Positions 39,057 through 47,711 of a DNA stretch of 64,000 nt are shown here, in pieces. Position numbers and translations under genes: made by a program. The stretch comes from a bacterium (lineage in GTDB: Bacteria; UBA10199; 2-02-FULL-50-16; JAJFLM01). The notes beneath the pieces were generated by a model that was given only the letters and a program-made list of their open reading frames with translations, ran no database searches and had not been told where the DNA came from. How positions within the stretch are numbered: the stretch's first letter is position 1; each line of letters begins with the position of its first letter. The stretch is from NCBI GenBank assembly GCA_965216315.1, contig CBDCFN010000016.1, positions 192,001-256,000 on the forward strand. The letters run 5' to 3'.

Positions 39057-39182
39057 CGCCCGTATTCGAAAATCATCTAAAAATCGCGAACTTATTTTGT
39101 CGATAAGCTGTGGATAGAGTTGGGATAACTTTTAATCCAAAAGTACTTGCGCTGATGACACACCTTGTTATGTTGCCCTTCC

Positions 39183-40568
39183 ATGGGCCTATCCATCGTC
39201 CAAAAAAGTAACCTGAATCAACGCCGGCCCCATGCCAAGACGGCGCTTGTCTTGGCCGGCGGCGCCATTACCGGCGGGACGTTTAAGGTCGGGGGCCTCA
39301 AGGCACTCAACGATTTTCTCGTCAATCGCAAGATAACCGATTTTGATCTTTATATCGGCCTTTCAGCCGGCGCCTTATTGGCGGCACCGCTTGCCGGCGG
39401 CATTGGTCCGGAAGAAATTCTCAAAAGTCTCAGTGGCTCATCAAGACATTTTAGACAGTTGTCCCCCATGCACATGTATACTCCTAACTGGCGTGAATTT
39501 ATTGAGCGACCGGTGAGTTATTTGTATCGCCGGGCGACCTATCTGCCGGGGATTGTGTATGACGTGGCCCGTTCTTATCCGTTTATTAAAGATGAAATTA
39601 AGAAGAAATTTTTCAACCTTGTTTCGCAACCGACGTATTCGAATCTAGAAGACCTGTTAGAACCTTTAGCCAAGGTGATTTACTCGAGTCGCGTGATGCC
39701 GAGTTTGGCCGAAGCACTGCCGAGCGGTCTTTTTGATAATCGGCCGCTCGAAGAATATATTCGCGCCAACATGGAAAGAAATCACCTGTCGAACAATTTT
39801 AAAGTCCTCAAGCGTTTGCGTAAAAAAGGTCTTTATATCGTGGCGACCGTGCTTGATTCCGCTGAGCGCGAGGTCTTCGGTTATGACGAAAAGAATGATG
39901 TTACGATTAGTGAAGCGGTCTGGGCGTCAACGGCTTTGCCGGGCTTTTATAAGCCAGTTCGACTCAAAGGGATTGATTACGTCGATGGCGCTGTGCGCCG
40001 CACGGCTAATATTGATGTGGCCGTCGCTAAAGGCGCTGAACTGATTATTTGTTATAACCCTTTTAGGCCTTTTAATAATGATCTTGTCCTTGAATATCTT
40101 CGCGAAGAAAAACGCTACGTGACTAAAGGGAAGCGATTATCACAGTTCGGTGTTTTTATGATTTTGAATCAGGCCGTTCGTTCGCTTTTTCACACGCGAC
40201 TGAAATTCACGCTCGAACACTACTCAAAAAATCCGAACTTTCAGGGAGACATCATTTTAATAGAACCTAAAGCGGATGATTCGCTTTTCTTCGAAATCAA
40301 TCCATTAGCTTTCTGGCAACGCGCCAAAGCGGCGAAGTGTGGTTTTAATTCCGTGCGGGATTCCATTGAAAGGCACTATGAACCGGTTTCCAAGATTCTC
40401 AATGCCTATGGAATTGAAATGAGTCGCGAACAGGTTGATCTTGATTATAGTAAAATAAGTCAGGCCGAAGATGATTCGGTGACATTGAAGGTACTGGAAG
40501 AGGAACGGCCGAAACGACGTTTTCGTGTGGTTAAAAACGGTGTTTCGGCGTCCGGCGCATCTAAATGA
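39183..40568 (+). CDS. Patatin-like phospholipase
   Basis: LVLAGGAITG oxyanion motif, GLSAG nucleophile, ASTALP, YVDGA. Confidence 0.9.
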   Translation: MGLSIVQKSNLNQRRPHAKTALVLAGGAITGGTFKVGGLKALNDFLVNRKITDFDLYIGLSAGALLAAPLAGGIGPEEILKSLSGSSRHFRQLSPMHMYTPNWREFIERPVSYLYRRATYLPGIVYDVARSYPFIKDEIKKKFFNLVSQPTYSNLEDLLEPLAKVIYSSRVMPSLAEALPSGLFDNRPLEEYIRANMERNHLSNNFKVLKRLRKKGLYIVATVLDSAEREVFGYDEKNDVTISEAVWASTALPGFYKPVRLKGIDYVDGAVRRTANIDVAVAKGAELIICYNPFRPFNNDLVLEYLREEKRYVTKGKRLSQFGVFMILNQAVRSLFHTRLKFTLEHYSKNPNFQGDIILIEPKADDSLFFEINPLAFWQRAKAAKCGFNSVRDSIERHYEPVSKILNAYGIEMSREQVDLDYSKISQAEDDSVTLKVLEEERPKRRFRVVKNGVSASGASK

Positions 40569-41755
40569 AGATCTACTCCGTTTCGGAGCTGACTCACTCG
40601 ATAAAAGATCTCCTCGAAGAGACCTATCCGGAAGTCTGGGTAAGCGGGGAAATTTCCAATTTTAAAGCCCATCACAACGGGCATTTTTATTTTAATTTAA
40701 AAGACCAAGACAGTCGGCTTTCCGCCGTGATGTTTCGCGGCAGCAATCAAAGTCTGCGTTTTTCTCCGGAAGAAGGCATGGAAGTTGTGTGCTTTGGCAG
40801 GCTGACGATTTATCCTCCCTATGGTCAATACCAGATTATCGTCAACGCGATGGAACCCCAAGGTTTGGGAGCCCTTCAACTTGCCTTCGAGCAGCTGAAG
40901 GAAAAGCTCGCCAAGGAGGGTCTGTTTGAGGAGGGGAAGAAAAAGGAGCTGCCTTCCTTACCCAGACGGATCGGGATCGTCACATCGCAGTCGGGGGCGG
41001 CATTACGCGATATGATAGACGTCGCGATGCGGCGCTATCCTAATGTCGAAATTCTCGTGGCCCCTGCAGCAGTTCAAGGGAAGGAGGCGGCGCCGCAAAT
41101 TGCCGATGCGATCGCTCGTTTGAATAAGCAGCCGAATATCGATGTTATTCTTGTCGGTCGAGGAGGCGGATCGATGGAAGACTTATGGGCCTTCAACGAA
41201 GAAGTCGTTGCGCGTGCGATCGCGGCGTCGGCGATACCCATAATTTCAGCGGTGGGGCATGAAACGGATTTTACGATCGCTGATTTTGTTGCTGATGTTC
41301 GCGCGCCGACGCCATCGGCAGCCGCTGAGTTGGCGGTGCCCAGCAAGGAAGAATTGGTCTATACACTGGCACAATGGCGCTATCGCTTGACGCGTGCGAT
41401 TAAACAAGGTCTCGATGAGCGGCATGAAGATGTCTTGGAGCTGCGAAGGCGTCTTAAAGACCCGCGTCGACGTCTTGAAGAAATGATGCAGCGCTTGGAT
41501 GACTTGACGATGCGCTCTCAGCGCGCCATCTTTCATCGCCTGCAATATGGTCGGATGGAATGGCGACGCCTTCAGCGTTCACTCAAAAACCTGAATCCCC
41601 TGGCGATCTTGGAGCGGGGTTATGCCGTCGTGAACCCCGTGGGCTCCGCGCAGGCCCTGACATCTCCCGAGCAGGTCAAAATCGGGGATAAGGTGCAAAT
41701 TCGCCTCGCTCAGGGGCGGATTTCCGCGGAAATACTTAAAAAATGGGGACTTTAA
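40565..41755 (+). CDS. xseA: Exodeoxyribonuclease VII large subunit
   Basis: VSGEISN...GHFYFNLKD, IGIVTS..GAALRD, RGGGSMEDLWAFN, SAVGHETD, RAPTPSAAAE. Confidence 0.96.
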   Translation: MKIYSVSELTHSIKDLLEETYPEVWVSGEISNFKAHHNGHFYFNLKDQDSRLSAVMFRGSNQSLRFSPEEGMEVVCFGRLTIYPPYGQYQIIVNAMEPQGLGALQLAFEQLKEKLAKEGLFEEGKKKELPSLPRRIGIVTSQSGAALRDMIDVAMRRYPNVEILVAPAAVQGKEAAPQIADAIARLNKQPNIDVILVGRGGGSMEDLWAFNEEVVARAIAASAIPIISAVGHETDFTIADFVADVRAPTPSAAAELAVPSKEELVYTLAQWRYRLTRAIKQGLDERHEDVLELRRRLKDPRRRLEEMMQRLDDLTMRSQRAIFHRLQYGRMEWRRLQRSLKNLNPLAILERGYAVVNPVGSAQALTSPEQVKIGDKVQIRLAQGRISAEILKKWGL

Positions 41756-41791
41756 AGCCCCTCATATTGACTCGGGCCCGGCAAGGGGCGT

Positions 41792-42052
41792 ATGGAGCAG
41801 GCAGTTGTTATGCCCCCTGCTAAGGCAAAAAAAGAGAATTTCGAGACGGCGCTCAAAAAGCTCGAAAAGATCGTGACGGATCTGGAAGAAGGCGATTTGA
41901 GCCTGGAGCGTTCCATCAAGGACTTTGAGCAGGGCAGCAAGCTTGCCCAGCTTTGTGAAGACCAGCTTAATGCCGCCCGTAAAAAGGTGGAAGTCTTGAT
42001 GGGGGATAAAGTGGAGAGCTTTCCATGGGATGAAGAGGACGATGAAGATTGA
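41792..42052 (+). CDS. xseB: Exodeoxyribonuclease VII small subunit
   Basis: FETALKKLEKIVTDLEEGDLSLERSIKDFEQG..L...C...L..A. Confidence 0.95.
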   Translation: MEQAVVMPPAKAKKENFETALKKLEKIVTDLEEGDLSLERSIKDFEQGSKLAQLCEDQLNAARKKVEVLMGDKVESFPWDEEDDED

Positions 42053-42962
42053 ATTGAAAAAATATCTCAAGCCGCGTCAAGAGCTCGTCAATCGCTATTT
42101 GGAAGAGCAGGTCCCGAAGGCGTCGTCGCCCGCGCCTATCCTCTATGAGGCGATGAACTACAGCCTTAGCGCCGGGGGGAAACGATTGCGTCCGATCTTG
42201 GTGCTTGCGGCGTGGGAGGCTTGCAAAGGAGATAAGGTTGCCATCAATAATGGCCTCCCTAAATATCCTGAAGCGGTCGTGGCGGCGGCTTGTGCCTTGG
42301 AAATGATTCATACCTATTCGTTAATCCATGATGACCTTCCTGCGATGGACGATGATGATTTGCGTCGCGGCGTTCCGACCAATCACAAGAAATTCGGTGA
42401 AGCGACTGCAATACTCGCTGGAGATGCATTATTGACGGAAGCGTTTGCCGCGCTTGCCACGGTGCCGACGGATGACAGTGACGTGATGTTGCGCGTAATC
42501 GGACAAATTGCACGTGCCTCCGGCGCGCAGGGAATGGCCGGGGGGCAGGTGCTGGATCTGCAGGCTGAAGGCAAGACGATTGAGCCGGAAGCATTAGAGC
42601 ATCTTCATCGGCATAAAACCGGTTGTTTGCTCCACGTCTCGTGCATCGCTGGTGGTGAATTGGCCGGTGCCAATAAAGAGCAGCGGCAAGCCCTCGATAC
42701 TTACGGGAAGAACATTGGACTGGCATTTCAAATCGCCGACGACATCCTTGATGTCGAAGGCGGGACGGAAGAGTTGGGCAAAACGGCCGGCGCCGATGCT
42801 GTCCATAATAAGAATACCTATCCCTCTCTGCTGGGCCTGGATCAGTCTAAACATCTGGCAGAGGCCCTGATTGAAACTGCCGTGTCCAGCCTAGAACCAT
42901 TAGGTGGTTCCAGTGCCGCTCTTGCGGCTATTGCGACGTATATTATTGCAAGGAAATCGTAA
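42042..42962 (+). CDS. ispA: Polyprenyl (farnesyl) diphosphate synthase
   Basis: GGKRLRP, SLIHDDLPAMDDDDLRRG, GQVLDL, KTG, FQIADDILD, GKTAGAD. Confidence 0.95.
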   Translation: MKIELKKYLKPRQELVNRYLEEQVPKASSPAPILYEAMNYSLSAGGKRLRPILVLAAWEACKGDKVAINNGLPKYPEAVVAAACALEMIHTYSLIHDDLPAMDDDDLRRGVPTNHKKFGEATAILAGDALLTEAFAALATVPTDDSDVMLRVIGQIARASGAQGMAGGQVLDLQAEGKTIEPEALEHLHRHKTGCLLHVSCIAGGELAGANKEQRQALDTYGKNIGLAFQIADDILDVEGGTEELGKTAGADAVHNKNTYPSLLGLDQSKHLAEALIETAVSSLEPLGGSSAALAAIATYIIARKS

Positions 42963-42964
42963 CT

Positions 42965-43390
42965 GTGGAATTTAAGCAGCACACGATTCAACTGGCGACG
43001 ACCCAGCCGATTGAGATCATCAATATAACAGATTCAGTTCAGGCCTTTGTTAAGGAAGCGGGACTGACTCATGGCCTGCTTCATGTCGGTAGTGCCCATA
43101 CCACTGTTGGACTTGCCATCAATGAAGAATGTTCTGAGTTACGTAAAGACTGGCTAGCTTTTTTGCAGCGCCTGGCTCCCGCTGGCGCTGATTACTTTCA
43201 TGACCGTGTCGCCGTTGACGGGCGCCCGAATGCCCACAGCCACTTGTTATCCACCGTGTTGCCGAGCCAGCTGACGATAGTCCTGCAGGATGGGGTACTC
43301 GCTCTCGGGACCTGGCAGTCGGTGTTTGCGATAGATCTCGATGGGCCACGACCCAATAGGAAAATTCATTTAACTGTGATGGGTGCGTAG
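42965..43390 (+). CDS. yjbQ: YjbQ/UPF0047 family protein
   Basis: HTT.GL.INE, NAHSHL, LGTWQSVFAIDLDGPR. Confidence 0.9.
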   Translation: MEFKQHTIQLATTQPIEIINITDSVQAFVKEAGLTHGLLHVGSAHTTVGLAINEECSELRKDWLAFLQRLAPAGADYFHDRVAVDGRPNAHSHLLSTVLPSQLTIVLQDGVLALGTWQSVFAIDLDGPRPNRKIHLTVMGA

Positions 43391-44600
43391 GGGCGTGTTA
43401 TCTGAACAAGACATTCCGGCTTTTTTCGCCTCCCGCTCCGATCTCAAGCTCGAAGACTACGCCATCTTTGAATACCGGTTTGAAACGGATAAAGATCCCA
43501 AGCAGGCGGCGGCTTCTTTATGTTGTGAGCAAAGCACCGCCCAGTGGCAGCGTCCCGGGGTTGATGAAGATTTTCGGCCTTTGCATGGGGCGAAGGTGTT
43601 GGAACTGACCCCTCACCCCGACCCTCTCCCTCAAGGGGAGAGGGGGCTCAAAAAGTATAAGGTCGTTATAGCTCACCCGCACCGCAACTTTGGTCCTCGC
43701 ATTCCTAATCTGTTGTCCGCAGCAGCGGGAGAGGGACCGTTTTATTGCCCCGGGATTAGCCGTATTAAGTGGACGGACCTGGAATTGCCGCGGTCTTACC
43801 TGAATGAATTCGAGGGACCCCAATTTGGTCTCAAGGGGGTTCGCGAACGCTTGGGAGTCAGTGATCGGCCGATTTTTTTCGGGGTGGTTAAACCAAATAT
43901 CGGTCTCAAGCCGGAAGATTTTGCGACGATAGCTGATGAGAGTTGGTGTGGCGGCCTTGATATCGCCAAAGACGACGAGATGTTGGCGGATACGGACTGG
44001 TCGCCGTTAATAGCACGGACGCGTCTGGCTGTCACTGCCAGTCAGCGGGCCGCGCAGGAGACCGGTCAAAAAAAGTTTTTTCTTCCCAATATTACGGATG
44101 AAGTGGATCGGATCCAAGACCTGTATCATCAAGTGACTGCAGCCGGTGCGCCAATGGTGATGATCAATGCGATCATGACCGGTATCAGTGCGCTACGAGC
44201 GTTGCGCCGCTACGCACAGGTACCCATTGTCAGCCACTTCACGGGAACATCGGTGTTCTCGCGCTTACCTCATTACGGGATGAGTTCGCTGGTGGCGACT
44301 AAACTACAGCGTTTGGCCGGCGCCGATATCATTATACTCGCGGGCTTTGGAGAACGGATGGGGTGTTCGGATGAAGAAGTCCTCGCAAATGTCGGTGCGT
44401 GCCTCCAGGAATGGGGCCCGTTGCTGCCTGTATTGCCGGTTCCGGGAGGAAGCGACAGTGCGGAGACTCTTGCCGGTGTCTATCAAAAGATCGGTCATGA
44501 AAATTTTGGATTCATTTGTGGTCGCGGTGTCTTTGGCCATTCCGATGGTCCCAAAGCAGGAGCGCAGAGTCTTCATGATGCCTGGGAACAGATTCGGTGA
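43383..44600 (+). CDS. RuBisCO-like protein (form IV), resembling the Chlorobaculum tepidum IV-Photo RLP
   Basis: EQSTAQW, RPIFFGVVKPNIGL, LDIAKDDEMLAD, NITDEVD, TKLQRLAG, LPVPGGSDSA, GRGVFGH.DGPKAGA; lacks RuBisCO K177 and loop-6 K334. Confidence 0.92.
   Translation: MRRGVLSEQDIPAFFASRSDLKLEDYAIFEYRFETDKDPKQAAASLCCEQSTAQWQRPGVDEDFRPLHGAKVLELTPHPDPLPQGERGLKKYKVVIAHPHRNFGPRIPNLLSAAAGEGPFYCPGISRIKWTDLELPRSYLNEFEGPQFGLKGVRERLGVSDRPIFFGVVKPNIGLKPEDFATIADESWCGGLDIAKDDEMLADTDWSPLIARTRLAVTASQRAAQETGQKKFFLPNITDEVDRIQDLYHQVTAAGAPMVMINAIMTGISALRALRRYAQVPIVSHFTGTSVFSRLPHYGMSSLVATKLQRLAGADIIILAGFGERMGCSDEEVLANVGACLQEWGPLLPVLPVPGGSDSAETLAGVYQKIGHENFGFICGRGVFGHSDGPKAGAQSLHDAWEQIR
43609..43646 (+). repeat. 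REP-like palindromic element lying in-frame within the RLP gene
   Basis: CCCCTCACCCCGACCCTCTCCCTCAAGGGGAGAGGGGG with CCCTCTCCC/GGGAGAGGG stem; translated as PHPDPLPQGERG. Confidence 0.7.
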
Positions 44601-45346
44601 AAACCCGTCTCGACGTTTGGTTAAGCGAACACGATTTGGCTCCTTCTCGACAGCGTGCGCAAGCTCTCATCATGGCCGGCGTCGTCTTTGTTAATGATGA
44701 GTTAGCCAAGAGTGCCGCCCAGCCGGTTAAAGAGGGTGATCGTGTGGTCGTCCGGCAAAAAGATCATCCGTATGTCAGTCGTGGCGGTTTGAAGTTGGCT
44801 CATGCGCTTGAGGTGTTCAACGTCCCCGTACAGAACAAGGTCGCTGTCGATGTTGGAGCGTCAACGGGTGGCTTTACGGACTGTCTGCTTCAAGCAGGGG
44901 CCCGCAAGATTTATGCTGTCGATGTCGGTTATGGTCAACTGGATTGGAAATTGCGGCAGGATCAGCGTGTCGTTAGCATTGAGCGGTGTAATGCGCGTTA
45001 TTGGGATGCCGCTGAAGTTGAAGAGACAGTAGCTATCCTGACGATGGATATATCCTTTATTTCAATCCAGAAAGTCCTGCCGTCCGTCTTGTCTGCGCTG
45101 GCTGGAAAAATGGAACAACCTTTTTTTCTTATTCTGTTGATTAAGCCTCAGTTTGAGGCGGGTCGGGAAGAAGTTGGTCCCGGCGGTGTTGTTCGAGATA
45201 ATGCAGTCCAACAGCAAGTCGTGACGAAGATACGCCGTTTCGTTGCTGAGTTGGGTTTTGAGTGTGTGGGTGTGGAAGCCGCTCCTATCAAGGGCCCGAA
45301 GGGTAATCAAGAGTATCTTTTGGTCGCTAAGTCGTTTGACGTTTGA
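44597..45346 (+). CDS. tlyA: TlyA family rRNA 2'-O-methyltransferase
   Basis: S4 domain RLD...SRQRAQALIMAG, YVSRGGLKL, DVGASTGGFTD, DISFIS, LIKPQFE, GNQEYL. Confidence 0.95.
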   Translation: MKTRLDVWLSEHDLAPSRQRAQALIMAGVVFVNDELAKSAAQPVKEGDRVVVRQKDHPYVSRGGLKLAHALEVFNVPVQNKVAVDVGASTGGFTDCLLQAGARKIYAVDVGYGQLDWKLRQDQRVVSIERCNARYWDAAEVEETVAILTMDISFISIQKVLPSVLSALAGKMEQPFFLILLIKPQFEAGREEVGPGGVVRDNAVQQQVVTKIRRFVAELGFECVGVEAAPIKGPKGNQEYLLVAKSFDV

Positions 45347-45376
45347 TGGAACTAAAGCTAAGTTGTTGATATAACT

Positions 45377-46990
45377 ATGAAGTTCTTACAAGTTTTCATT
45401 GTCGCGTTGGTTGTGGCCGGACTGTTCGGCTCCTGTGCGCCGCGTGCGAAGCGTGCTCCGCTTATTGATACCGATGAGCATAGAGGGCTACGTTCTTATT
45501 TACTCAGCAAAATCGAGGCTTATCATGGTGAGCCGGAAGAGGCGATGAAATCGCTTAAAGAAGCACTAAAAGACGATCCGGATAATCCGCATATCGAAAC
45601 GCAAATTGCTGCGCTTGAAGCGGATCAAGGGCGCATTGCGCAGGCGCTGAAACGCGTCGATGATATTCTAATGCGCTATCCAAAGCATATTCCCGCCCTA
45701 CAATTAGCTGGTAAGATCGCCGGGACTCAAGGCCGCTTGGATGATGCCATTGCCTATTTCCGTAGAATTTTGCTGATTAAGTCATCGCTTTCTAGAATCC
45801 GTTTAAGCATTGCGGAGATTTATATTGCGCGCAAACAGTACCCGCAAGCCATTGCAGAGTTGCGGACTATTCAGCGAATCGAACCGGATTTTTTAGGGGC
45901 CTATTTCTTGGAAGGACTCATTTATACGGTTCACCTCAAAGACTATCCAAGAGCAATTATCGCCTACCGAAAGCTTCTTGAATACGAGCCGGCGAATATC
46001 CAGGTGCTGACAACGTTGGCTGAATTATATTTAAAGCTTAAGCAAAACCGGAAGGCTATTGGCGCATTAAGGCGTATTCACAAAATTGCTCCCTCCAATA
46101 TAGCCATCCCACTTAAGATTGCGTTGATACACTATCAGGCCAAACGCTATCAGGAAGCCGCGGATGAGTTCGTTTCGATTCAAGCGGAACACCCCGAAAT
46201 GGATAAGATCACGTACTATCTGGGAGTCATTTACGAAAATATTAAGAAGTATGATCAAGCTATTCTTGAGTTTGCCAAGATAGAGGAAGAATCAAAATAT
46301 TTCCGGGACGCAAGACTTCATCAAGCATTGATTTATGAGAAGCAAGAACGCCGCGATGAAGCGATTCAACTTCTTTGGGACACTATCGATGAAATGCCGC
46401 GTGAATCGGCGCTCTACGAATATCTTGTTGAGCTTTACCGTCAAGATCAAAATTGGGAAGGCGCTGTGGAGGCGCTCAAGAAAGCCATAGCCAAGACGGA
46501 TAATAAGGAGAAGTTCTATTATTCATTAGGCATGCTGTATGACCAGATGGGTTCGTTTGAGGACTCAATAGATGCGATGGAGGAAGTTCTCAAAATAAAT
46601 CCGGACAATGCCAATGCCCTCAATTTTATAGGCTATTTGTTTGCCGAGCAGGGGATTAAATTAAAGGAGGCAGAAGAAAAAGTCAGTAGGGCGCTGCAGC
46701 TAAAGCCGGATGATGGTTACATCACTGATAGTTTGGGTTGGGTCTATTTCAAGCAAGGAGAATTGAAAAAAGCAGCTGAGTACGTGCAACGCGCCTTGAA
46801 ATTGACGAAGAGAAAAGAGCCGACGATTATCGAGCACCTTGGGGATATTTATAAAGCGCAAGGACGTATCAAGGCTGCGCGACGGATGTATCAGCAGGCC
46901 TTACAACGACGTCATGCATCTCCTGATTTACTAGACAATAAAGAAGTTATACCGAGGCTTCGTGATAAGGTTAAAGAGACACTTCATTAG
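45377..46990 (+). CDS. TPR-repeat lipoprotein
   Basis: Lipobox LFGSC; many TPRs; ALNFIGY..AE, DGYITDSLGWVYFKQG, EHLGDIY. Confidence 0.88.
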   Translation: MKFLQVFIVALVVAGLFGSCAPRAKRAPLIDTDEHRGLRSYLLSKIEAYHGEPEEAMKSLKEALKDDPDNPHIETQIAALEADQGRIAQALKRVDDILMRYPKHIPALQLAGKIAGTQGRLDDAIAYFRRILLIKSSLSRIRLSIAEIYIARKQYPQAIAELRTIQRIEPDFLGAYFLEGLIYTVHLKDYPRAIIAYRKLLEYEPANIQVLTTLAELYLKLKQNRKAIGALRRIHKIAPSNIAIPLKIALIHYQAKRYQEAADEFVSIQAEHPEMDKITYYLGVIYENIKKYDQAILEFAKIEEESKYFRDARLHQALIYEKQERRDEAIQLLWDTIDEMPRESALYEYLVELYRQDQNWEGAVEALKKAIAKTDNKEKFYYSLGMLYDQMGSFEDSIDAMEEVLKINPDNANALNFIGYLFAEQGIKLKEAEEKVSRALQLKPDDGYITDSLGWVYFKQGELKKAAEYVQRALKLTKRKEPTIIEHLGDIYKAQGRIKAARRMYQQALQRRHASPDLLDNKEVIPRLRDKVKETLH

Positions 46991-47711
46991 CAGCCTAATT
47001 ATATTAGGGTTGTGTAGTTGTGCGGGTCTTCGCATGATCGAACGTCCCCAGGCGACTTCGTCTGCCGTGCGGCAAGGGGCGCAGTGGTATGAAGTGTTGT
47101 GGCAGCGTGATCAGGCCATTCAAACTCTTAGGGCGTCGGCACGAGTCCGTGTGAGTAGTGGGATTTTCTCCAGAGCGGTGGAGCAGGCGTTGATCGTTAA
47201 AAGGCCTAAGAATATGCGGCTTGATAGCTATACGGTCTTGGGGAATTTAATTCATCAATTAGTGCTTCGTAACGGTTCTTTATGGGTTTATGATGCAACG
47301 CGCGAACGCTTCGATAAAGATCGTGATGCGGAGCGACTACTGGAGGAAAACCTGGGTCTCGGCTTATCTATTGATGATATGGTCAGTATTTTAGTGGGGA
47401 GCGTTCCGTTGGAAGAGAGGACTGATTACCTCGCCGTTACAAAAAAACAGGGGGATGTGCTGCGAGGACTTAATTCGCAGGTTCTTATCGATCCTCAGAC
47501 GCAGCTGCCGCAGCGTTTTTCCGGCTATACGCGCCACAATGAGCTCTATGAGGTTCGCTATAGTCATTACCGGGAGGTGGCAGGGATCTCCTTCCCTCAT
47601 CGCATTGCGGTGGCGCTCCATGAGCCGCGAATTTCGCTTGAAATAAGCTTTAAAGATGTTGATATCAATATTCCTGTATCGGACGAAAAGTTTGCACATG
47701 AAGTTCATTAA
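46962..47711 (+). CDS. LolB/DUF4292-like lipoprotein
   Basis: Lipobox LCSC; RP..MRLD; VRYSHYREVAGISFPHRI; follows the TPR gene. Confidence 0.6.
   Translation: MIRLKRHFISSLIILGLCSCAGLRMIERPQATSSAVRQGAQWYEVLWQRDQAIQTLRASARVRVSSGIFSRAVEQALIVKRPKNMRLDSYTVLGNLIHQLVLRNGSLWVYDATRERFDKDRDAERLLEENLGLGLSIDDMVSILVGSVPLEERTDYLAVTKKQGDVLRGLNSQVLIDPQTQLPQRFSGYTRHNELYEVRYSHYREVAGISFPHRIAVALHEPRISLEISFKDVDINIPVSDEKFAHEVH

Follow-up and report, generated by a model that had tools for sequence, protein, structure and literature searches.

A yjbQ gene and a gene for a IV-Photo RuBisCO-like protein inside the ispA operon of a bacterial class with few recognisable Dxs proteins

Genes of the locus and identity of the RuBisCO-like protein

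A stretch of 64,000 nucleotides from contig CBDCFN010000016.1 (assembly GCA_965216315.1, positions 192,001 to 256,000), called the window here, was found to carry a yjbQ gene and a gene for a form IV RuBisCO-like protein (RLP) as a pair within its ispA operon. The genes at the locus were named by Pfam and NCBIfam profile matches on the open reading frames (ORFs) of the window. The yjbQ gene (UPF0047; 42965..43390, plus strand) scores 114.2 bits on PF01894 (cut-off 27) and 108.3 bits on TIGR00149 (cut-off 67.75), and its product belongs to a subfamily linked to RLPs. The RLP gene of the IV-Photo clade follows on the same strand (43383..44600, plus strand), with 145.9 bits on PF00016 and 22.2 bits on PF02788, both above the cut-offs. 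Upstream of the pair lies ispA, encoding farnesyl diphosphate synthase (42030..42962, plus strand; NF045485 366.2 bits, cut-off 275), and downstream lies tlyA, encoding an rRNA 2'-O-methyltransferase (44597..45346, plus strand; TIGR00478 238.8 bits). Further upstream in the block lie the genes for the two subunits of exonuclease VII, the large one encoded by xseA (40565..41755, plus strand; TIGR00237 500.9 bits) and the small one by xseB (41792..42052, plus strand; TIGR01280 77.1 bits). The order xseA-xseB-ispA-yjbQ-RLP-tlyA given in a preliminary description of this DNA was confirmed as a tightly packed plus-strand block from 40565 to 45346, and the genes from ispA through tlyA abut or overlap as it had stated, with overlaps or gaps of at most 8 nt. 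The gap between ispA and yjbQ is 2 nt, yjbQ and the RLP gene overlap by 8 nt (a gap of 4 nt instead if the RLP starts at the 401-aa form, which is the start of the database copy), and the stop of the RLP gene overlaps the start of tlyA by 4 nt. Further upstream, xseB and ispA overlap by 23 nt, as read from the sequence.

The RLP had been likened to the IV-Photo clade, and comparison with solved structures agrees with this. Its best solved relatives are 2qyg (RLP2 of Rhodopseudomonas palustris, 476.1 bits) and 1tel/1ykw (RLP of Chlorobaculum tepidum, 447.8/445.9 bits), while the next-best solved structure is a form III RuBisCO with 165.1 bits. Both the C. tepidum RLP and R. palustris RLP2 show 53-57% identity to the window RLP over the full length and possess the same motifs. 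The motifs named in that description were also found in the translation, as VVKPNIG, AKDDE and PVPGGS. In an alignment of 48 RLPs, KPNIG, KDDE and PVPGGS are invariant, and this invariance of the catalytic motifs suggests that the enolisation chemistry is retained. We take the replacement of KPKLG by KPNIG, with KDDE kept, to mean that carboxylase residues are lost and that the carbamylated lysine and the metal ligands are kept. All scores on equivalog models of RuBisCO forms I-III stay below cut-off (TIGR03326 194.3/497.45; NF003252 189.5/438; NF010002 124.3/489), and those on MtnW equivalog models stay far below it (TIGR03332 130.6/513.6; NF007095 166/409).

In a tree of 97 sequences, built without reference sequences of other RLP clades, the window RLP groups with the RLPs of phototrophs. 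The phototroph RLPs fall into a single clade (support 100), next to which stands a grade of ispA-linked RLPs, and the root is placed on a long divergent branch and is unsure. The genome of the window, designated G000 (other G-numbers are relatives in the same class, and L-numbers are loci), has a single RLP, which is Photo-type and not DeepYkr. The nearest named records are metagenome-assembled genomes (MAGs) labelled Deltaproteobacteria, Myxococcota or Pseudomonadota. Unlike the RLPs of C. tepidum and R. palustris, those of the window and its relatives are ispA-linked, and the NCBI labels of the host lineage are not those of phototrophs. A 2018 study called the substrate of the Photo-clade RLP unknown in the part of its text consulted (PMC5893883), and no later answer was found in the literature searched. 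A divergent RLP with 38% identity to the window RLP was observed in G024 (L137:4911-6248), in a genome which also carries the alcohol dehydrogenase described below; its neighbours are a sialate-esterase-like gene, a MobA-like nucleotidyltransferase and a CDP-alcohol phosphatidyltransferase.

The class backbone around the pair is patatin-xseA-xseB-ispA-[slot]-tlyA-TPR-LolB-like. In the window its first gene encodes a patatin-like phospholipase (39165..40568, plus strand; PF01734 94.7 bits), which is found upstream of xseA in the relatives too. The downstream part is formed by a tetratricopeptide repeat (TPR) protein (45377..46990, plus strand; Pfam TPR families) and a LolB-like lipoprotein (46962..47711, plus strand; DUF4292/LolB), which follow in the same order in relatives. 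No terminator-like site was found on the plus strand from 42623 to 47460 by a scan which is overall at chance level, the promoter and terminator counts being close to those of shuffled sequence (12 vs 10.9 and 13 vs 13.0).

Pairing with yjbQ, linkage to ispA and the alternative occupant of the slot

Comparison within the class was done on three sets, namely 41 relatives, 46 class genomes for Dxs, and 65 class genomes at least 90% complete for the RLP and the alcohol dehydrogenase. The linkage of yjbQ and RLP, on which the preliminary description had built, recurs in the relatives. An RLP is present in 27 of the 41, and 19 of these 27 have yjbQ immediately upstream of it in the same orientation. 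A scan for IV-Photo loci with one genome per species gave 336 RLP relatives; the best 80 loci were taken, 79 of them with a usable RLP, and yjbQ was found directly upstream in 66 of the 79. The paired loci span Alpha- and Gammaproteobacteria, Gemmatimonadota, Chloroherpetonaceae and the class of the window, and include Rhodopseudomonas, Rhodomicrobium, Rhodoblastus, Rhodopila, Ectothiorhodospira, Chromatiaceae, Gemmatimonas and a Chloroherpetonaceae MAG. The 13 loci without upstream yjbQ comprise 8 from Chlorobiaceae/Chlorobiota, 3 cut at contig ends and 2 others. The yjbQ partner is common to the window, R. palustris and most other phototrophs, whereas Chlorobiaceae have a cluster of aldolase and short-chain dehydrogenase/reductase (SDR) genes instead. 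In Chlorobium (L083) the neighbours of the RLP are an LsrF-type aldolase (509.9 bits), a fusion of aldolase and SDR, and an SDR. The median distance between yjbQ and the RLP gene is about 2.5 nt (46 pairs), and the two proteins show correlated pairwise distances (r = 0.83 over 1035 pairs).

To place the YjbQ proteins, a phylogram of 71 sequences was used. All 36 RLP-linked YjbQs form one branch (support 98/89), and none of 13 copies sampled from RLP-less genomes of the alcohol dehydrogenase type described below falls inside it. A separate YjbQ clade (100/100) is represented in each of the seven genomes which have an IV-Photo RLP and no adjacent yjbQ, and it also includes a second copy from G001. 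Joining of this clade to the RLP-linked branch gave a p-AU of 0.35 in the approximately unbiased (AU) test and is neither rejected nor shown. Invariant residues of YjbQ include H45, T46, T47, E54, D62, H79, D85, R87, N89 and H93. All nine solved relatives (1vmf, 1vph, 2p6h, 1ve0 and others) are unnamed 'hypothetical' proteins. The window protein resembles E. coli YjbQ (UPF0047) in scoring above the family cut-offs and differs from it in belonging to the subfamily that travels with RLPs; E. coli is not known to have an RLP. No literature naming both an RLP and YjbQ was found. In the portion of PMC3010111 consulted, the function of YjbQ is listed as 'Unknown', its overexpression is said to rescue an E. 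coli pdxB mutant, and a low ThiE-like activity is cited that is not believed to be physiological. In the 67%-complete genome G033 (L178, C30), a YjbQ was placed by a quick tree on the side of the RLP-linked copies, which suggests that the RLP may simply be missing from that assembly.

The RLP gene, with or without yjbQ, adjoins ispA in 23 of the 27 RLP-bearing relatives, over at least 14 families. The slot between ispA and tlyA is empty in G038 and G021, where ispA abuts tlyA directly, and in other relatives it holds Mrp/NUBPL, UbiD or toxin-antitoxin-like genes. No isoprenoid genes lie close to the pair in G013, G021, G028 and most phototrophs. Four alphaproteobacterial loci, one from Rhodomicrobium and three from MAGs, show dxs followed after a short gap by yjbQ-RLP; where the record extends far enough, xseB lies upstream of dxs. 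Since the Dxs proteins of these four loci are 82-86% identical, the arrangement probably reflects one event. In an alphaproteobacterial MAG, the dxs beside yjbQ-RLP (L077:6-1891) was matched in three frames, which points to frameshifts or long-read errors. Among other neighbours, an aldo/keto reductase gene comes right after the RLP, in the same orientation, in G032 (L132:3822-4928) and G011 (L136:6717-7877), and in family f3 (L126, L133, L106, L108) a gene for a Mrp/NUBPL-type Fe-S carrier follows the RLP or ispA.

Where a relative has no RLP, ispA is often flanked by the gene for a Zn-dependent alcohol dehydrogenase (ADH) of the polyol/threonine-dehydrogenase type. No NCBIfam model assigned it above cut-off, the best being Tdh with 175 bits against 458. 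Orthologues of this ADH (46-70% identity; for example L104:6149-7258 of G017) were found in 13 of the 41 relatives, and the genomes which carry it are exactly those without a Photo-type RLP, except two incomplete genomes (80% and 67% complete). Among the 65 class genomes at least 90% complete, 44 have the RLP, 20 have the ADH, none has both and one has neither (Fisher p = 7e-16, uncorrected for kinship). Both states occur within families f3, f9, f14 and f17, and even within one genus of f3 (G004 vs G019). The ADH is situated in the same ispA slot in G003, G017, G024, G031, G018, G039, G063 and G064, and in family f9 it occupies the slot which holds yjbQ-RLP in its relatives. Aldolase genes are also found with it: in G018 its neighbour is a class II aldolase, and in G004, G012 and G072 (L141, L143, L145) it is accompanied by a DeoC/LacD-type aldolase and a second ADH paralogue. 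A search of G000 found an orthologue of neither the ADH nor the DeoC-type aldolase. The ADH match of G063 (G063:C1:2144578-2145570) contains two in-frame TGA codons.

Dxs, the demand for DXP and the supply by MtnP and MtnA

The window contains no dxs, as had been described, and none was found across G000 (2.96 Mb in 16 contigs, N-free, 98.3% complete). A profile search of the whole assembly with TIGR00204 gave 142.4 bits at best against a cut-off of 465.95, and tblastn with the Rhodomicrobium Dxs gave a best match of 97 bits and 24% identity, which is a transketolase. In G000 the Dxs model matches a split transketolase, the E1 of a pyruvate dehydrogenase and a 612-aa transketolase-like protein. 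The 612-aa ORF (G000:C16:2150702-2152534; L002:577-2415), which is present in addition to the split transketolase, was rejected as a Dxs, as it scores 887 bits on the transketolase model NF004559 and 183.8 bits on TIGR00204. Dxs proteins score about 192 bits on NF004559, higher than on other transketolase models. ORF lengths and scores place the 612-aa type in only about 15 of the 41 relatives, so it does not substitute for Dxs generally. Split transketolases, which reach 140-227 bits on the Dxs model, were also rejected, since their N-terminal halves give just 21-46 bits, and they were read as transketolases.

G000 has a use for DXP (1-deoxy-D-xylulose-5-phosphate), the product of Dxs. Dxr (507.8 bits) and IspH (218.4 bits) of the methylerythritol phosphate (MEP) pathway are both present above their cut-offs, as are the thiamine synthesis proteins ThiG (372.6 bits) and ThiE (182.5 bits, cut-off 145.1). 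HMG-CoA reductase gave no match in G000, in a search which covered Dxs, Dxr and IspH of the MEP pathway and this one enzyme of the mevalonate pathway. With Dxr, IspH and ThiG present and Dxs unrecognised, G000 needs DXP for at least two pathways without a recognisable synthase. The same holds widely in the class. Dxs scored above cut-off in 6 of the 41 relatives and in none of five further class genomes (6 of 46 in total), and Dxr did so in 40 of the 41. Dxs is absent from the single-contig genome G063, and G023 (3 contigs, 100% complete) has ispA-yjbQ-RLP and Dxr and shows no Dxs-, transketolase- or E1-like match. The shortage of Dxs across the relatives marks it as a trait of the lineage and not of the assembly, and a class with Dxs in 6 of 46 genomes is a lineage where a Dxs-independent route must exist. 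A 2023 survey, in the part of its text consulted, reports that 181 of 4400 species lack only Dxs and that the mechanism is unexplained for 172 of them (PMC10663253). The pairing of yjbQ with the RLP, the exclusivity of RLP and ADH, and the lack of Dxs across the class appear to be unreported in the literature searched.

The preliminary description had predicted that the pair would be anticorrelated with dxs, and this was not observed. The RLP is present in 4 of 6 relatives with dxs and in 22 of 35 without it (odds ratio 1.18, p = 1). Canonical dxs was found in 5 of 5 phototrophs with RLP, four of which carry the yjbQ-RLP pair, and 12 relatives have Dxr and neither Dxs nor RLP. In the four alphaproteobacterial loci the pair even adjoins dxs itself. 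Taken together, these observations show that the pair is not simply a replacement of Dxs.

Both MtnP (336 bits) and MtnA (463.8 bits), the enzymes whose presence had been proposed as a check, are encoded in G000 above their cut-offs, and a branched-chain aminotransferase gene adjoins mtnA. MtnA is also above cut-off in 40 of the 41 relatives. MtnB is above cut-off in just 3 of the 41, with weaker class II aldolase matches in 8 more, so that in most class genomes the near-universal MtnA has a product without a known consumer. Among the phototroph genomes with RLP, MtnA was found in 5 of 5, against 8 of 14 control genomes. G000 itself has an MtnB-like gene of 194.7 bits, above cut-off. At this place (G000:C16:953755-956507, L120) the MtnB-like gene is followed by two small ORFs without NCBIfam family and an exonuclease-like gene, and a distant medium-chain dehydrogenase/reductase (MDR) gene lies on the opposite strand.

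Possible roles of the pair

Two known pathways offer a comparison. The MTA-isoprenoid shunt of Rhodospirillum rubrum and R. palustris, named for 5'-methylthioadenosine (MTA), is composed of MtnP, MtnA, a DeepYkr-clade RLP which acts as 5-methylthioribulose-1-phosphate (MTRu-1P) 1,3-isomerase, and a cupin, the 5-methylthioxylulose-5-phosphate (MTXu-5P) methylsulfurylase, and leads to DXP. As given in the portions of the reports consulted, the R. rubrum RLP converts MTRu-1P to MTXu-5P, which goes onward to DXP (PMC10663253, PMC6302742), and the dihydroxyacetone phosphate (DHAP) shunt for MTA and 5'-deoxyadenosine consists of an aldolase and ADH enzyme set (PMC5893883, PMC6302742). G000 resembles the hosts of the MTA-isoprenoid shunt in having MtnP, MtnA, Dxr and an RLP with enolisation motifs. 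It differs from them in that its RLP is of the Photo clade, has YjbQ as partner instead of the cupin and lies inside the ispA operon. G000 is also without Dxs, unlike those hosts; R. palustris has Dxs, and R. rubrum has it as well. With the DHAP shunt (MtnP, MtnA, class II aldolase and alcohol dehydrogenase) the class shares the same presumed upstream steps. The branch alternating with the RLP is DHAP-shunt-like in its Zn-dependent ADH, which is joined by a class II aldolase in G018 and by one of the DeoC/LacD type in G004, G012 and G072, whereas the window has the RLP branch.

We tentatively prefer, with somewhat less than even confidence, a reading in which what MtnP and MtnA produce, a 5-substituted ribulose-1-phosphate, has two alternative sinks, and YjbQ and the RLP are one of them, isomerising it towards DXP. 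For the substrate, the product, the role of YjbQ and the contribution to the DXP pool we infer the following scheme. MtnP and MtnA would make 5-substituted D-ribulose-1-phosphate from MTA and/or 5'-deoxyadenosine, both by-products of S-adenosylmethionine (SAM). YjbQ and the Photo RLP would form a two-enzyme module which would shift the carbonyl along the chain by enolisation, like the R. rubrum RLP, and YjbQ might provide the second proton transfer or an epimer correction. The product would be a 1-substituted xylulose-5-phosphate, which from a 5-deoxy substrate would be DXP itself. As 5-deoxyribulose-1-phosphate is a positional isomer of DXP, the same 1,3-shift as in the R. rubrum enzyme would give DXP without the cupin, and DXP from the module would then be available to the MEP pathway and thiamine synthesis. 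In the class, the module would be built into the ispA operon, and the other sink would be the Zn-dependent ADH, with or without an aldolase, in a DHAP-shunt-like manner. An RLP branch isomerising towards DXP would explain its place in the ispA operon. The pairing, the ispA position and the alternation with ADH and aldolase narrow the candidate substrates to a few pentulose phosphates that can be bought or prepared with enzymes. The locus joins three questions, namely the substrate of Photo RLPs, the role of YjbQ/UPF0047 and the source of DXP in Dxs-less MEP bacteria.

Several points weigh against this two-sink scheme. The absence of dxs anticorrelation is one, and the yjbQ-free RLP loci of Chlorobiaceae are another. 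The linkage to ispA could reflect a permissive insertion slot, given that the slot is empty in G038 and G021 and that Mrp or UbiD genes occupy it elsewhere. In G000, the MtnB-like protein could consume MTRu-1P, and the methylthio route would in addition need the cupin methylsulfurylase. If the ADH branch does no more than the DHAP shunt, genomes of the ADH type without Dxs need an unknown route to DXP, and that route might also supply the RLP genomes; another option is that a deoxy-pentulose is made by the ADH/aldolase cluster itself. Aldolase side reactions forming deoxy-pentulose are used in engineered routes. The flux of SAM by-products may, on a general estimate, be too low for all isoprenoids. 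In the literature searched, nothing linking 5-deoxyribulose-1-phosphate to DXP or to an RLP was found, and the 5-deoxy substrate is our own suggestion. The Photo RLP of R. palustris is reported to be negligible in MTA metabolism in vivo and in vitro, with no MTA phenotype on deletion, and RLP2 is reported to have no part in the MTA-isoprenoid shunt, in the sections of the study consulted (PMC5893883). The same sections describe, as a point in favour of the scheme, that a small share of MTRu-1P is slowly converted to MTXu-5P by RLP2 in vitro, and no mention of RLP2 being tried with YjbQ or with a 5-deoxy substrate was found in them.

The preliminary description had suggested that RLP and YjbQ may form a Dxs-independent route to DXP or a related sugar phosphate. 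Of the findings it had named as refuting, an intact dxs elsewhere in the genome and a loss of the yjbQ-RLP linkage in relatives were not seen, and MEP genes are present. Its tie by context to isoprenoid-precursor metabolism stands, while the idea of a simple Dxs substitute does not, as the pair shows no anticorrelation with dxs. It is unlikely, in our estimate, that the pair is the main Dxs-independent source of DXP in G000 and the other Dxs-less members of the class. In favour of such a role, G000 has no Dxs and no HMG-CoA reductase was found in it, yet it has Dxr, IspH and ThiG, and the rarity of Dxs in the class, the gene content of G023 and the many surveyed species which lack only Dxs agree with it. 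The pair also sits where dxs sits in other phyla, and 64 of the 65 genomes of at least 90% completeness in the class carry RLP or ADH. Against these stand the even distribution of the RLP over relatives with and without dxs and the canonical dxs of the RLP phototrophs, four of them with the pair. The ADH-type genomes without Dxs, such as the single-contig G063, need another source, which possibly serves the RLP genomes also, and in G000 the 612-aa transketolase-like protein and other thiamine diphosphate (ThDP) enzymes are possible moonlighting DXP synthases. The available substrate flux is doubtful as well. We give similarly little credence to the more specific version, a 5'-deoxyadenosine-isoprenoid shunt in which the Photo RLP and YjbQ would turn 5-deoxy-D-ribulose-1-phosphate directly into DXP, without a cupin, as a principal source of DXP in the Dxs-poor class, with the ADH/aldolase cluster as the alternative to it. 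If true, this would give the IV-Photo RLPs and the YjbQ subfamily linked to RLPs the function that has long been sought for them. 5'-Deoxyadenosine is a waste product of radical-SAM enzymes, and anoxygenic phototrophs use both radical-SAM enzymes and isoprenoids heavily; the shunt would hence explain why the IV-Photo clade is common among them. Were the pair to make DXP, terpenoid engineering would also gain a new way of feeding the MEP pathway.

A different possibility is that the pair acts on a ketose or diketone phosphate unrelated to SAM by-products, for example by removing or isomerising a compound of the 1-deoxy-2,3-pentodiulose-5-phosphate type, and that the ispA site is a tolerated insertion. 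The unrelated genes in the ispA-tlyA slot of relatives and the pairs away from isoprenoid genes (G013, G021, G028 and most phototrophs) fit with this. The aldolase, fusion and SDR genes around the Chlorobium RLP resemble the chemistry of diketo-pentose phosphates, and aldo/keto reductases follow the RLP in G032 and G011. The rescue of E. coli pdxB indicates that YjbQ can act on small phosphorylated keto-acids (PMC3010111, as far as consulted), and RLP2 of R. palustris has no MTA phenotype. A mere insertion is harder to reconcile with ispA adjacency in 23 of 27 genomes from at least 14 families and with the recurrence of adjacency to dxs in a distant lineage. An unrelated substrate is similarly at odds with the alternative occupant of the slot, an ADH with aldolase partners as in the DHAP shunt, and with the near-universal MtnA of the class which lacks a known downstream enzyme. 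We consider this explanation rather improbable on balance.

Classical methionine salvage was also considered, in which the RLP would be a 2,3-diketo-5-methylthiopentyl-1-phosphate (DK-MTP-1-P) enolase like MtnW (YkrW) of Bacillus and YjbQ an accessory such as a phosphatase. The window RLP is like MtnW in its RuBisCO superfamily membership and in the context of salvage of SAM by-products, and G000 possesses MtnP, MtnA, an MtnB-like dehydratase above cut-off and the branched-chain aminotransferase gene by mtnA. This reading is nevertheless very improbable, as the RLP falls far short of the MtnW equivalog cut-offs and MtnB is mostly absent in the class, being found in 3 of 41 relatives against 27 of 41 for the RLP. 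Photo RLPs reportedly also have no DK-MTP-1-P enolase activity. We regard as hardly credible that YjbQ is a thiamine-phosphate synthase here, with the RLP supplying a thiamine precursor, even though the NCBIfam family bears the name 'secondary thiamine-phosphate synthase' and a low ThiE-like activity has been cited. That activity is not taken as physiological in the consulted part of the source (PMC3010111). No Rfam family scored above the gathering score in the window, no TPP (thiamine pyrophosphate) riboswitch was seen, and only tRNAs were found in 9 related loci. The thiamine role which had been proposed for YjbQ is moreover unnecessary, since the canonical ThiE of G000 lies above its cut-off.

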